From: a virus
DNA: 5,617 bases
IMG/VR virus record: IMGVR_UViG_3300045988_000918
Location: 1-5,617 of that record
Direction: 5' to 3' (one strand)
Both the position numbers and the translations under genes were made by a program. Below, in pieces: positions 2,738-5,097 of the stretch; the first letter of the stretch is position 1; every line of letters starts with the position of its first letter. The notes beneath the pieces are model-generated. The model was given only the letters and a program-made list of their open reading frames with translations, was not told the DNA's origin and ran no database searches.

Positions 2738-3580
2738 ATGCTAGCAGGAATTGGAAGCGCATTACTAGGAATCGGAAAACAGTTATTACCATCAATCGCG
2801 AGCTGGGGCATAAACAAACTACTTGGCGGAAACATGAGCGAAAGTAGCGGAGGCAGTCAACAGCACAACGAAAGCACAAGCGCCGGCGGCGGCACAAGCA
2901 CCAGCGAAAGCGGCGTAAACAGAAACCAAAATCTGCAGGACTGGAATAGTATGCTTGGAGCAATTCAAGCAAATATGCAAAGTCAGCAAAAGTTTAACCG
3001 AAAAAGCATGTTCGAACAAATGGGATATAACACCATGGCGGCAATCACGCAAGGAGTGTATAACCAGATAAGCAACAACGCGGCAATGAACTACAACAGC
3101 GCAGAGGCCGCAAAAAACAGAGCTTGGCAAGAGCAAATGAGCAACACAGCCTACCAAAGAGCTGTAGCCGACATGAGAAAAGCGGGAATCAACCCTATTT
3201 TAGCATACCAACAGGGCGGAGCAAGCACACCGGGCGGAGCACAAGGCACAATCAGCGGAGCAAGTATGGGGCTTGCAAGCAGTAGCGCGGCAAGCGCAAG
3301 TGCTCTAGGCGTAAGCCAAAACCACAACAACACATGGAGCAAAAGCGAAAGCAATTGGTACAACGCAGCGCAAGCGGTCGGAGACGCGACAAGTTGGCAA
3401 CACACAAGTGCAGACAAAGCGTTCAATGAATTCAAAGACGTCTTCAACAGCCTCAACAGCCTAAACACTGGAACAGGAGGCGCAGGAAGAAAGCCAACCA
3501 AAAACGAGCTTGAATACAAGCCGGGAAGAGACTTCATAGGAAACAAGAACGTCGAATTTTGGAAAGGAAAACTTAAATAA
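2738..3580 (+). CDS. VP2 minor capsid / DNA pilot protein, 280 aa (phiX174 H analogue)
   Basis: It has a Gly/Leu-rich hydrophobic N-terminus, a low-complexity S/G/N/Q region and the conserved motif [22 protein letters not shown], typical of microvirus VP2. Its position after VP1 also fits. Confidence 0.9.
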
Positions 3581-4600
3581 ATGGGATGCAATAAACCGTT
3601 AATCCGGTTTTACGTACCTCATGACAGGGAGGCGAGTGGGAGAGTGTACTCACTCGCCTCTTTTAACGAGATACACAAAACCAAGATGACGTACGAAAAT
3701 TTAATGTACCGAAAAGATGTAATGTTGATACCATGCGGACAATGCACCGGGTGCAGACTAAGAAAGCGTAAAGATTGGAGCACACGAATGGAGCTAGAAG
3801 CATACGGTCACAACAAAGAAAGTATCTGGTTTATTACACTAACTTATGATGATGATCATGTACCAACACAGGACACAGAGACAGGCGAAATTTACAAAGG
3901 CGGTATAAACATCTGGAAAGGCACCTCAGAGCGGCCAAAAACGGCGCAAACACTGAGCGTAGAGGATACCCAACTATTTATAAAAAGGCTCAGAAAGGCC
4001 GTCAAAGAGCCTCTGAGATACTTTTTAGCGGGAGAGTACGGAGACAACACAGCACGACCACACTATCATATGATACTATATGGATGGCATCCGGACGACT
4101 TAAAACCAATCCACAAATTGTCAAGACACGGTCATTATACAAGCGATAAGCTAGTAAAAATCTGGGGACAAGGCACAATAGACATAGCACAGGCAACACC
4201 AGAGACCTATAATTATGTTGCAGGGTATGTAACTAAAAAGCTATACGGCAACGACAAAAAGCGTTACCAAAAAATGGGTTTAATACCACCATTTTGCACT
4301 ATGAGCCGGAAGCCGGGACTAGGAGACAAATGGTTCGAAGACAACCAACAACGACTCTGGCAACAAGGATACATACAGCTTACCAATGGCAAGAGAGCGG
4401 CCATACCAGAATACTATTGGAGAAAGCTGGAAGCCGAAAACCCTGAAAAAGCATGGAGAATCAAGAAGTATCGACAAGAAAAAGCTATAGCTTCCCTAAT
4501 CGAAAGAAACGCGGAAACCGATAAACCATACGCGGAACAGTTAAAAGACAAAGAAACGTCAATGTCGAAGAAAATGAGCAAAGCCAAAGGCATATTTTAG
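3581..4600 (+). CDS. VP4 replication initiator, 339 aa (HUH rolling-circle endonuclease, phiX174 A family)
   Basis: A Cys cluster PCGQCTGCRL is present. Motif 1 is FITLTY. The HUH motif is PHYHMILYG, with HYH at 4061-4069. The tyrosine motif is YNYVAGYVTKK, starting at 4208. The ATG directly follows the VP2 TAA. Confidence 0.95.
   Translation: MGCNKPLIRFYVPHDREASGRVYSLASFNEIHKTKMTYENLMYRKDVMLIPCGQCTGCRLRKRKDWSTRMELEAYGHNKESIWFITLTYDDDHVPTQDTETGEIYKGGINIWKGTSERPKTAQTLSVEDTQLFIKRLRKAVKEPLRYFLAGEYGDNTARPHYHMILYGWHPDDLKPIHKLSRHGHYTSDKLVKIWGQGTIDIAQATPETYNYVAGYVTKKLYGNDKKRYQKMGLIPPFCTMSRKPGLGDKWFEDNQQRLWQQGYIQLTNGKRAAIPEYYWRKLEAENPEKAWRIKKYRQEKAIASLIERNAETDKPYAEQLKDKETSMSKKMSKAKGIF
3629..3660 (+). 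other. Perfect 10-bp GC-rich hairpin inside the 5' end of the VP4 coding sequence
   Basis: gaggcgagtg (3629-3638) is the exact reverse complement of cactcgcctc (3651-3660). The loop is 12 nt and the stem is followed by tttt (3661-3664). Confidence 0.8.
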
Positions 4601-4607
4601 CCTTTGG
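4584..4607 (+). other. 8-bp hairpin spanning the VP4 stop codon
   Basis: ccaaaggc (4584-4591) pairs with gcctttgg (4600-4607). The 8-nt loop is atatttta. The TAG stop is at 4598-4600. Confidence 0.6.
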
Positions 4608-4610
4608 TGT

Positions 4611-4659
4611 CACTCAGCCAAGTAACTATCAAGTAAGCTACTTGGCTGAGTGTTTTATT
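4611..4659 (+). terminator. Rho-independent terminator after VP4
   Basis: cactcagccaagta (4611-4624) pairs with tacttggctgagtg (4639-4652), a perfect 14-bp stem with a 14-nt loop. It is followed by ttttatt. Confidence 0.8.
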
Positions 4660-4669
4660 GATTTGTTAA

Positions 4670-4711
4670 ATGCACACGCACGCGCACGTAATCGCGCACG
4701 CGCACGTGCAT
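4670..4711. repeat. Two perfectly alternating purine/pyrimidine (CA/CG) tracts containing a 13-nt direct repeat
   Basis: 4670-4690 (21 nt) and 4693-4711 (19 nt) alternate R/Y without interruption. cgcacgcgcacgt occurs at 4677-4689 and 4695-4707. The flanks aatgcac (4669-4675) and gtgcatt (4706-4712) are inverted. Confidence 0.85.
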
Positions 4712-4740
4712 TATATTATTATTTTTATTATTAACTTGTT
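4711..4740. other. AT-rich tract (candidate DNA-unwinding element)
   Basis: The sequence is ttatattattatttttattattaacttgtt, 28 of 30 positions A/T. It lies directly 5' of the (TAG)5 array. Confidence 0.5.
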
Positions 4741-4741
4741 G

Positions 4742-4756
4742 TAGTAGTAGTAGTAG
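4742..4756 (+). repeat. (TAG)5 trinucleotide tandem repeat, DnaA-trio-like (5'-TAG-3' equals 3'-GAT-5')
   Basis: There are five uninterrupted TAG units on the + (virion) strand, followed by ggag and then the first DnaA-box-like 9-mer. Confidence 0.6.
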
Positions 4757-4831
4757 GGAGTGTTGAAATGTTGAATACTATGAATTTTTATCCTTGGAAC
4801 GATATTTTTTGGCTAATTTTAATGTTGATAC

Positions 4832-4863
4832 TTTTGTGGATAACTTGTTGAAATGTTGAAAGT
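4832..4863 (+). repeat. Copy A of a ~32-nt imperfect direct repeat (DnaA box plus two TGTTGAAA units)
   Basis: ttttgtggataacttgttgaaatgttgaaagt aligns with 4896-4928, with 2 substitutions and a 1-nt indel. Confidence 0.8.
4835..4843 (-). promoter_or_regulatory. Perfect consensus DnaA box (TTATCCACA on the minus strand)
   Basis: The + strand reads tgtggataa, an exact 9/9 match to the reverse complement of TTATCCACA. Confidence 0.65.
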
Positions 4864-4872
4864 ATAGCAATA

Positions 4873-4892
4873 TGCACAAAAACCTTTGTGCA
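4873..4892. other. Small hairpin between the two direct-repeat copies
   Basis: tgcacaaa (4873-4880) pairs with tttgtgca (4885-4892). The stem is 8 bp and the loop is aacc. Confidence 0.5.
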
Positions 4893-4895
4893 ACA

Positions 4896-4928
4896 TTTTG
4901 TGGAAAACCTGTTGAAAGTGTTGAAAGT
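4896..4928 (+). repeat. Copy B of the ~32-nt imperfect direct repeat
   Basis: ttttgtggaaaacctgttgaaagtgttgaaagt. It starts 64 nt after copy A. Confidence 0.8.
4899..4907 (-). promoter_or_regulatory. DnaA box, TTTTCCACA (fits TTWTNCACA)
   Basis: The + strand reads tgtggaaaa. It has the same orientation as the perfect box and lies 64 nt downstream of it. Confidence 0.55.
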
Positions 4929-5044
4929 GTTGAAAAAGCAAATAAAGGCAGTCCGGCGAGCGAAACCGAAAAGTTGCGTCATGCTCTTCGCACGGCGCAC
5001 CGCGCCTACCGCATGACCTAAAATAAAAAGTTTCAAAAAACCTC

Positions 5045-5073
5045 TTGACAAATCGAAATATCTGTGGTCTAAT
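5045..5073 (+). promoter_or_regulatory. Sigma70-type promoter with extended -10
   Basis: The -35 is TTGACA (5045-5050). After a 17-nt spacer the -10 is TCTAAT (5068-5073), preceded by TGg (5065-5067) to give TGnTCTAAT. An A-tract-rich UP-like region lies at 5019-5040. The first downstream gene starts at 5098. Confidence 0.65.
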
Positions 5074-5097
5074 ACAGATAGAAAAGGGGGTATAGAG

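Follow-up and report, generated by a model that had tools for sequence, protein, structure and literature searches.

The 5,617-nt window analyzed here (the whole of IMG/VR virus record IMGVR_UViG_3300045988_000918) is a complete gokushovirus-like microvirus genome, and positions 4711-4936, behind its replication gene VP4, hold a cassette with the layout of the basal unwinding system (BUS) of bacterial chromosome origins, followed by distal clusters of DnaA boxes. The cassette is a BUS-type module in a new context and not a chromosomal origin. We consider it rather probable that it is a portable module of host type, serving as an origin at which the duplex is opened in a DnaA-dependent manner. 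An original prediction, made from the letters of this stretch, had described an oriC-type unwinding module here, composed of an AT tract, DnaA-trios, a G-rich spacer, and co-oriented boxes. Comparisons with the BUS and with bacterial oriC regions supported this core reading, and all of the coordinates given for it proved correct on re-check.

Anatomy of the cassette

On the + strand, the AT tract is followed by (TAG)5, by GGAG, and then by co-oriented TGTKGAWA boxes. The elements, from left to right, are as follows.

4669-4712: alternating purine-pyrimidine (CGCGCAC)n block at the left cassette boundary, with the direct repeat CGCACGCGCACGT present twice and a 20-nt imperfect inverted repeat
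4711-4733, + strand: AT-rich tract, in the position of a DNA-unwinding element past the trios
4734-4741, + strand: motif ACTTGTTG, directly 5' of the trios
4742-4756, + strand: five TAG triplets, the DnaA-trio array (3'-GAT-5')
4757-4760, + strand: spacer GGAG, 4 nt, in the position of the "GC cluster"
4761-4768, + strand: trio-proximal 8-nt box TGTTGAAA, equivalent of DnaA-box#7
4769-4777, + strand: abutting 9-nt box TGTTGAATA, equivalent of DnaA-box#6, with zero gap to the 8-mer
4778-4822: gap of 45 nt between the BUS box pair and the distal clusters
4823-4862, + strand: distal cluster 1, with TGTTGATAC, TGTGGATAA, TGTTGAAA, and TGTTGAAAG
4835-4843, + strand: the perfect DnaA box TGTGGATAA of cluster 1 (TTATCCACA on the minus strand)
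4873-4892: small palindrome TGCACAAA-aacc-TTTGTGCA (8 bp) between the distal clusters
4899-4936, + strand: distal cluster 2, with TGTGGAAAA and then three TGTTGAAAG/A boxes at a 9-nt period
4899-4907, + strand: the box TGTGGAAAA of cluster 2

Chance expectations were obtained from dinucleotide shuffles, of which 200 were used for TGTKGAWA and (TAG)5. TGTKGAWA was observed 10 times against 0.78 expected, and a count of 10 was reached in 0 of the 200 shuffles; nine of the ten lie within 4761-4935, every one of them on the + strand. Likewise, TGTTGAA was observed 8 times against 1.17 expected, and (TAG)5 with up to two mismatches arose in 0 of the 200 shuffles. The claim that a perfect DnaA box here is beyond chance was borne out, as exact TTATCCACA occurs once against 0.03 expected. 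As for the eleven same-orientation 9-mers originally counted, nine stand under a strict definition, and eleven are reached only by a loose one that adds TGTTGAATA (4769) and TGTTGTAG (4737). The ~32-nt direct repeat that had been described was also recovered; positions 4832-4853 and 4896-4917 are 91% identical, and the similarity runs on into the TGTTGAAAG runs. The two repeat modules carry the G-type boxes. The AT-rich end of the cassette has 28 A or T among the 30 positions of 4711-4740, and its GC content is 0.29 in 100-nt windows.

Comparison with the published basal unwinding system

In Bacillus subtilis, the BUS is made up of DnaA-box#6/#7 of incC and the DnaA-trios (Richardson 2016/2019; PMC8287927; PMC10721633). 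The trio-strand scaffold oHM558 of that system reads 5'-TAGTAGAAGTAATAGTAG-GGCC-TGTGGATT-TGTGGATAA-GT (Pelliciari et al. 2021 supplement, PMC8287927), and window positions 4742-4779 read 5'-TAGTAGTAGTAGTAG-GGAG-TGTTGAAA-TGTTGAATA-CT. Box orientation and box-to-trio spacing, which the first reading of the sequence had left to be compared with the published architecture, are an exact match to this oligonucleotide. As in B. subtilis, trios and boxes share one strand, the boxes are TGTGGATAA-oriented and lie 3' of the trios, a 4-nt G/C-rich spacer leads to an 8-nt proximal box that abuts a 9-nt box, the AT-rich tract is on the far side of the trios, and distal box clusters follow. The same 9+8+4 layout is found in the Listeria and Staphylococcus entries of the published BUS tables.

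Under the published rules for a BUS search (PMC8287927), a candidate has three or more NAN trios, its spacer measures 0-16 nt, and the boxes of the pair are separated by 3 bp at most; the better box may have up to two mismatches to the DnaA-box motif of the species and the other up to four. The preferred trio is 3'-GAT-5' (5'-TAG-3'), the gap from trio to box is G/C-rich and 4 bp on average, and three trios are the minimum for origin activity in B. subtilis. In the window there are five perfect TAG triplets, and the 4-nt spacer GGAG places the distal box 12 nt from the trios, which is the value of B. subtilis, Listeria, and S. aureus. The tandem, co-oriented pair of TGTTGAAA and TGTTGAATA lies on the TAG strand in the same abutting 8+9 arrangement as TGTGGATT and TGTGGATAA, and 4711-4740 supplies the AT-rich tract. 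Both boxes of the pair have three mismatches to the E. coli consensus TTATCCACA and one each to TGTTGAAAA, the presumed motif of the host. Relatives that carry TGTGGAAA or TGTTGAAAA pass the default mismatch rule, and the published BUS tables accept TGTTGATAA and TGTTGAAAA as DnaA boxes in Borrelia, Maribacter, Treponema, Porphyromonas, Chlamydophila, and Ruminococcus albus.

The module nevertheless differs from a chromosomal BUS in several respects. It is located in a 5.5-kb single-stranded DNA (ssDNA) phage and not in an oriC between dnaA and dnaN. In contrast to B. subtilis, both BUS boxes of the window are T-type, whose distance from the E. coli consensus was given above. Unlike those of bacteria, the distal boxes of the phage all point one way, the cassette as a whole is invertible and movable, and the invariant motif ACTTGTTG, which is not a general feature of bacterial BUS flanks, precedes the trios.

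Counterparts in bacterial origins and the probable host

Genome scans covered the genomes of 185,579 species. A dedicated scan with the pattern TAGTAGTAG-N4-TGTTGAAA-N0-1-TGTTGAA yielded 64 bacterial stretches, of which at least 36 are named as Oscillospiraceae, Ruminococcus, Acutalibacteraceae, or Ruthenibacterium, and 13 further ones belong to unclassified Clostridia, Clostridiales, or Eubacteriales, with a few from other phyla. Alignment with dnaA-dnaN regions had been proposed as a check on the origin-like reading; dnaA and/or dnaN flank the site in 55 of the 64 stretches, and the site lies between them where both were detected. Microvirus VP1 or VP4 was present in 0 of the 64. The BUS of Oscillospirales, (TAG)5-GGGC-TGTTGAAA(n)TGTTGAAAA with GGGC or GGGG as its spacer, is near-identical to that of the phage, and the position of the abutting box, TGTTGAATA in the window, is taken by TGTTGAAAA in the bacterial counterparts. 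The dimensions are also similar, as follows.

In-phase trios: median of 5 in bacterial origins, 5 in the phage
Distance from the box pair to the next box: median of 46 nt in 60 bacterial origins, 45 nt in the phage
A+T upstream of the trios: bacterial median of 82% (40 nt), 93% in the phage

The conserved length of the ~45/46-nt gap (4778-4822 in the window; loci L125, L210, and L241-L302) suggests that it is constrained by looping, phasing, or a further factor.

The original prediction had allowed that the TGTTGAAA "iterons" might bind a different protein. Instead, this type of box is the predominant origin box in those bacteria. In the 400 nt adjoining bacterial BUS sites, TGTTGAAAA is 45-fold enriched and is five times commoner than TGTGGAWAA (241 vs 48), and control 9-mers including TGTCGAAAA are rare. 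Because TGTTGAAAA-type boxes dominate the origins of Oscillospirales (Ruminococcus, Oscillospiraceae, Acutalibacteraceae), the hosts of cassette-bearing phages are probably members of this order, as judged from box sequence. The G-type BUS pattern was found in at least 120 further species from many phyla, indicating that the layout is common to bacteria and that the T-type version points to Oscillospirales. Among the 120 G-type matches listed, none identified a bacterial group with the box pair of the second phage lineage, TGTGGAAA followed by AGTTGAAAA.

Likeness to bacterial origins is limited to a BUS core of 33-45 nt, a distal module of 34-60 nt, and one longer alignment. The latter is with a Clostridia oriC next to dnaN (L210), which is colinear with window positions 4736-4917 over 196 nt at 69% identity and shows, as in the window, the order of BUS, 46-nt gap, T-box, G-box, and T-box pair. 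This colinearity fits the option, raised in the original prediction, of captured host origin DNA. Over 34-35 nt, distal cluster 2 shares 97% identity with origin regions of Ruminococcus (L180, L206). A 28-mer of the distal cluster, TGTGGAAAACCTGTTGAAANTGTTGAAA, was found in no bacterial chromosome of the species scanned and in one contig of the genome collection, which is itself a microvirus; recent capture from a sequenced host was thus rejected. The same 28-mer search of the genome collection revealed no prophage copies.

A composite pattern, TGTGGAWAACYTGTTGAAA, matched at least 120 stretches from many phyla, often amid other boxes. Among the matches listed, its recurrent neighbors are DnaA (30 loci), DnaN (17), YidC (15), RecF (11), and GyrB (7), which marks it as a feature of origin regions. 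Four of these loci have (TAG)4-5, a 4-nt G-rich spacer (GGGG, GGGC, or GGTA), and then a box pair of an 8-nt TGTTGAAA or TGTGGAAA, one base, and a 9-nt TGTTGAAAA or TGTGGAAAA. We also observed that the composite TGTGGAWAA-CY-TGTTGAAA (L120-L239), that is, a strong box, 2 bp, and a T-type box, recurs at dnaA, dnaN, yidC, recF, and gyrB across many phyla, and it may represent a widespread unit in which a DnaA box of high affinity is coupled to one of low affinity. Separately, large IMG/VR contigs of 23-159 kb (L432, L433, L436, L448) hold canonical BUS strings such as TAGTAGTAG-GGGC-TGTGGATAATGTGGATAAG. No dnaA was detected in the stretches around the BUS match of these four contigs, which may be double-stranded DNA phages or phage-plasmids whose origins are of BUS type; otherwise, they may be prophage calls extending over a host oriC.

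Conservation among microviruses

The intergenic region of the window matched 54 GenBank phage records, and in several of them 4821-4936 was the only part of the genome alike enough for megablast. The nearest records, entered as "Gokushovirus WZ-2015a" and "Microviridae sp.", are gut phages found in feces of humans, pigs, monkeys, and dogs; several laboratories and hosts are represented among the GenBank genomes that carry the cassette. In IMG/VR, all contigs among the matches listed for the BUS pattern are microvirus-sized. The BUS was identified by a strict expression in 155 of the 166 microvirus contigs compared, with the trios on the coding strand in 145 and on the opposite strand in 10; the other 11 include variants of a single triplet. 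Across the cassette-bearing contigs, VP1 is 38-96% identical to that of the window.

A sample unbiased by the cassette was then formed by picking 80 relatives by VP1 alone (53-90% identity). The cassette was present in 72 of them. The remaining eight, with no detectable cassette, are linear contigs without terminal repeats, and six of these, which could be placed by BLAST, end in or short of the cassette region; they were set aside as uninformative about relatives that truly lack the cassette. No complete relative without the cassette was found, and the conservation of boxes, trios, and spacing in relatives that had been proposed as a test was thereby confirmed. In five contigs (L377, L381, L382, L410, L417), the assembly ends inside or beside the repeat-rich cassette. 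Since assembly ends fall there, surveys of incomplete contigs would underestimate how frequent the cassette is.

Alignment of 87 unique sequences showed that columns 4733-4776, 4822-4860, and 4886-4936 are about 90-100% identical and that the cassette is more conserved than coding sequence. Within it, ACTTGTTG and distal cluster 1 are each at least 90% conserved, distal cluster 2 (4899-4936) is the most conserved non-coding stretch of the genome, and the AT tract recurs at the same position with variable length. Trios and spacers were parsed in 83 relatives with a non-greedy expression allowing spacers of 3-6 nt. A 4-nt spacer fits all 83, in 17 sequence variants. The three box-proximal triplets are TAG TAG TAG in 76 of the 83, with the central A kept in 82, and no constraint is seen on the fourth triplet from the box (TAG, TCG, GAG, ACG, or CCG). 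Three fixed trios followed by a free fourth fit the published minimum of three. At the position of the proximal box, relatives have TGTTGAAA, TGTGGAAA, or AGTGGAAA.

Two flanking or internal elements showed patterns of their own. The CGCGCAC block (4669-4712) is kept in all relatives, and in the lineage with an inverted cassette, CGCGCAC-type sequence is present on both cassette flanks; the block may be an inversion or recombination site, or may be prone to form Z-DNA. At the position equivalent to the palindrome 4873-4892, the second phage lineage has a different palindrome, TCGTCA-aaa-TGACGA, suggesting that a hairpin or dyad binding site, rather than the sequence, is conserved.

Orientation, position, and the form of DNA acted on

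In Microviridae, the packaged strand is the coding strand, and the trios of the window sit on it. In 10 contigs from two lineages (VP1 identity 52-59% and 41-43%), the whole cassette is on the strand opposite to the genes; AT tract, ACTTGTTG, trios, spacer, box pair, and distal clusters are inverted as one unit. The same is observed in the GenBank complete genome KT264784.1 (human feces, France), in which each of the four annotated genes runs counter to the full cassette and the latter is located in the VP2-VP4 interval instead of behind VP4. Furthermore, the single-stranded fold of 4700-4945 is no better than that of shuffled sequences (z = +0.98; 169 of 200 shuffles fold as well). The original suggestion that DnaA binds trios on the packaged strand, as in an ABC primosome acting on the incoming ssDNA, is countered by these results. 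Orientation independence, relocation, and the lack of single-stranded structure together argue for action on duplex DNA. The most likely site of action of the cassette is therefore the double-stranded replicative form (RF) and not the packaged strand.

The motif ACTTGTTG resembles the phiX174 origin core, CAACTTG^ATA. As a nick site of the replication initiator VP4, this motif was rejected, for it inverts along with the cassette and a nick site must stay on the + strand. The inversions also speak against a fixed geometric partnership between the cassette and any VP4 site.

Genome context

The window represents a circular genome whose unit measures 5,518 nt, with a terminal redundancy of 99 nt. 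All recognizable genes are on the + strand.

147-266, + strand: small basic protein
263-502, + strand: ORF5-like protein
480-974, + strand: VP3
971-2692, + strand: major capsid protein VP1
2738-3580, + strand: pilot protein VP2
3581-4600, + strand: HUH replication initiator VP4

The HUH-type VP4 is the sole replication protein encoded, and a family search matched no DNA-binding family to the three small open reading frames (ORFs) of the window. The cassette occupies a 497-nt intergenic region (4601-5097) on the 3' side of VP4, between VP4 and the small ORFs.

Two further structures were observed in the same region. A strong hairpin at 4605-4652 directly follows the VP4 stop and is succeeded by a T-rich run (z = -5.1 for the single-stranded fold); compensatory changes affect 5 of its 12 stem pairs among relatives, and its loop CTATCAAG and 5' flank GGTGTCA are invariant. 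This hairpin is a candidate for the rolling-circle origin of VP4, with the nick site in the loop, and/or for a terminator. Read on the opposite strand, the loop includes ACTTGATA, a sequence similar to the phiX174 origin core. Downstream of the cassette, relatives strongly conserve the GC-rich stretch 4948-5018, which includes an imperfect hairpin (4978-5017) and folds no better than shuffles as single strand (z = +0.36). It might serve as the complementary-strand origin or belong to the leader of the genes that follow. The cassette itself contains no promoter-like site, the sole promoter-like match (4621-4594, minus strand) being close to the VP4 stop, and a function as a promoter array or as terminators was rejected on this ground. 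A structured RNA was likewise rejected, since Rfam returned one sub-threshold chance match and no family.

Alternative explanations

Several other functions were weighed against a duplex-opening origin. The cassette may be a sink or sensor that binds DnaA on the multicopy RF without productive unwinding, thereby titrating DnaA to block re-initiation of the host or tying phage expression to the DnaA-ATP level. We regard this as unlikely, though deserving of serious attention. A genome with about ten co-oriented boxes would suit a sink, which would be expected to be equally indifferent to orientation, and DnaA-box clusters on multicopy plasmids do perturb initiation in B. subtilis, whence the "inc" names. 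Like oriC minichromosomes and DnaA-titrating loci (datA; the B. subtilis clusters), the cassette would be an extra DnaA-box array competing for DnaA. However, the titration loci are without the unwinding site of trios, spacer, and AT tract that the cassette has, and minichromosomes, which are not viruses, are built in the laboratory or derive from chromosomes. Trios, a fixed 4-nt spacer, an abutting 8+9 pair, and an AT tract would be superfluous in a sink, yet these are the most constrained features, and they reproduce a chromosomal unwinding site rather than a mere box cluster. A sink or sensor is further opposed by the lack of a promoter-like site in the cassette and by its varying position and orientation relative to the genes.

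Alternatively, DnaA could assist VP4 by melting the duplex, opening it for access to the nick site or for helicase loading in rolling-circle replication. HUH initiators need single-stranded or extruded substrates, and the cassette is ~60 nt from the covarying hairpin with the invariant loop that is the candidate VP4 origin. Nevertheless, the unwinding end of inverted cassettes faces away from this hairpin, and the KT264784.1 cassette is in another intergenic region. Owing to the inverted cassettes and to this relocation, neither distance nor polarity to a fixed VP4 site is conserved, and we hold this explanation to be quite unlikely.

Very unlikely, in our view, is binding of the TGTTGAAA repeats by another protein, either an iteron binder of the phage or a host regulator such as Spo0A, with a superficial likeness to the BUS. 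TGTTGAA is one base from the Spo0A 0A-box TGTCGAA, and three small phage ORFs are without an assigned function. However, the same boxes fill the BUS box positions between dnaA and dnaN in 55 bacterial genomes, they occur also in the origins of non-sporulating phyla, and some relatives have TGTGGAAA, a standard DnaA box, as their proximal box. Spo0A boxes were rejected because there is no TGNCGAA in 4601-5097 (two in the window, at 840 and 4563) and TGTCGAAAA is not enriched at origins; a phage-encoded iteron binder was rejected because the family search found no match for the three small ORFs. Iteron-type theta origins (pSC101, F, P1 oriR, RK2, R6K) have an element-encoded Rep, iterons of 17-22 bp, and no trios. 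The cassette shares with them direct repeats, DnaA boxes, an AT-rich region, and, if our reading holds, recruitment of the host helicase through DnaA. In contrast, its repeats are DnaA-box variants of 8-9 nt, and no such Rep is encoded in the window.

Priming of the complementary strand, in which DnaA on the packaged strand would recruit helicase and primase in the manner of the ABC primosome, appears extremely unlikely. It would agree with the strand of the window's trios, which is the packaged one, and TGTGGATA could be brought into a stem if 4832-4842 paired imperfectly with 4871-4881 over 11 nt. The "A site" of the ABC primosome described by Masai and Arai is reportedly an ssDNA hairpin carrying a DnaA box (R6K, pBR322) and, as would hold for the cassette, involves host DnaA on a small replicon with a single-stranded stage. 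Such a site, however, needs a stable hairpin with a duplex DnaA box, whereas the strand in the window is unstructured, the pairing partner is absent in the second lineage, and the boxes, being all co-oriented, are unable to pair with each other. Unlike an A site, moreover, the cassette occurs in either orientation, and its inversion in the 10 contigs and KT264784.1 puts the trios on the unpackaged strand. The ABC-primosome model was therefore rejected on the inverted cassettes and the lack of single-stranded structure. The complementary-strand origins known in Microviridae, namely, the PriA primosome assembly site of phiX174 and the DnaG-recognized hairpins of G4, are likewise non-coding sites of host-factor recruitment in an intergenic region; they are DnaA-independent ssDNA structures on the packaged strand, in contrast to the unstructured, duplex-origin-like, and orientation-independent cassette.

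Finally, a non-functional passenger, arising from recombination with a host oriC or from chimeric assembly, would account for the colinearity with bacterial oriC, but it is scarcely credible and effectively refuted by conservation: the cassette is in more than 150 microvirus contigs and in GenBank genomes of independent provenance, exceeds coding sequence in conservation, is under structured constraint (spacer length fixed, spacer sequence free), lies in a genome that closes as a circle, and contains a distal-cluster 28-mer found in no bacterial chromosome.

Proposed mechanism

We therefore return to the DnaA-dependent, duplex-opening origin as the favored explanation of 4711-4936. The module would be active in the double-stranded RF, where host DnaA would bind the co-oriented TGTKGAWA boxes. 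From the abutting box pair (4761-4777), an oligomer of DnaA-ATP would be guided past the 4-nt spacer to the TAG trios; the duplex would open at the trios and the adjoining AT tract, and the helicase-loading machinery of the host would enter. The predicted outcome is a DnaA-dependent, VP4-independent initiation leading to theta-type replication or amplification of the RF, and possibly to plasmid-like RF maintenance. The rolling-circle mode driven by VP4 would run alongside and make the progeny single strands.

Several points weigh against this explanation. The BUS boxes of the window fail the default rule of at most two mismatches unless the T-type is a host-specific motif, and binding of DnaA to TGTTGAAA boxes is suggested only by the position that they occupy in bacterial origins. 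The helix-turn-helix signatures of DnaA domain IV overlap between genomes with a T-type and a G-type BUS, with no clean change of specificity, in a comparison that is confounded by phylogeny. With VP4 as an ordinary HUH initiator of rolling-circle replication, the phage has no obvious need of a second replication mode. Clusters of DnaA boxes in multiple copies are known to disturb host initiation, and titration could be the selected effect. In addition, the microvirus contig that holds the 28-mer, a member of this clade (L240, CALBJK010000280.1, 5,840 nt), was binned with an "uncultured Prevotella sp." metagenome-assembled genome, which conflicts with the assignment to Oscillospirales and is probably an artifact; as a guide to the host, binning is weak at best.

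Implications

The BUS itself is known. In the full-text literature, no paper pairing gokushovirus with DnaA, or Microviridae with "DnaA box", was found, and papers combining DnaA-trio with bacteriophage, or Microviridae with DnaA, appear by their titles and abstracts to be reviews or incidental co-occurrences. A conserved, mobile BUS cassette in a clade of ssDNA rolling-circle phages thus appears to be undescribed. Our analysis suggests that a large group of gut ssDNA phages uses host DnaA on the double-stranded form. Microviruses are textbook rolling-circle replicons, and a complete DnaA unwinding module of chromosomal type throughout one of their clades implies either that replication or helicase loading has a second mode, dependent on the host initiator, or that host initiation is taken over. 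A DnaA-dependent strategy would thereby be added to a family known for PriA- or DnaG-type recruitment.

For the study of the BUS, the cassette offers a compact natural module of ~230 nt, in which variation marks three trios, the 4-nt spacer, and the abutting pair as constrained, and it adds to the case that TGTTGAAAA works as a DnaA box in a major group of gut bacteria. It also provides a sequence-based host assignment, to Oscillospirales, for abundant gut gokushoviruses without a cultured host. If the RF is maintained via the cassette origin, this would bear on the years-long persistence of microviruses in the human gut. More tentatively, and with less confidence than in the mechanism proposed above, we consider it possible that gut microviruses replicate and persist in Oscillospirales as DnaA-driven, oriC-type episomes, or "viral minichromosomes", by means of a mobile origin cassette captured from a host. 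If this is true, it would constitute a third lifestyle of Microviridae besides lytic growth and XerCD-mediated integration, the sequence of the cassette would serve as a read-out of host range, and the long-term stability of these phages in individual guts could be explained.

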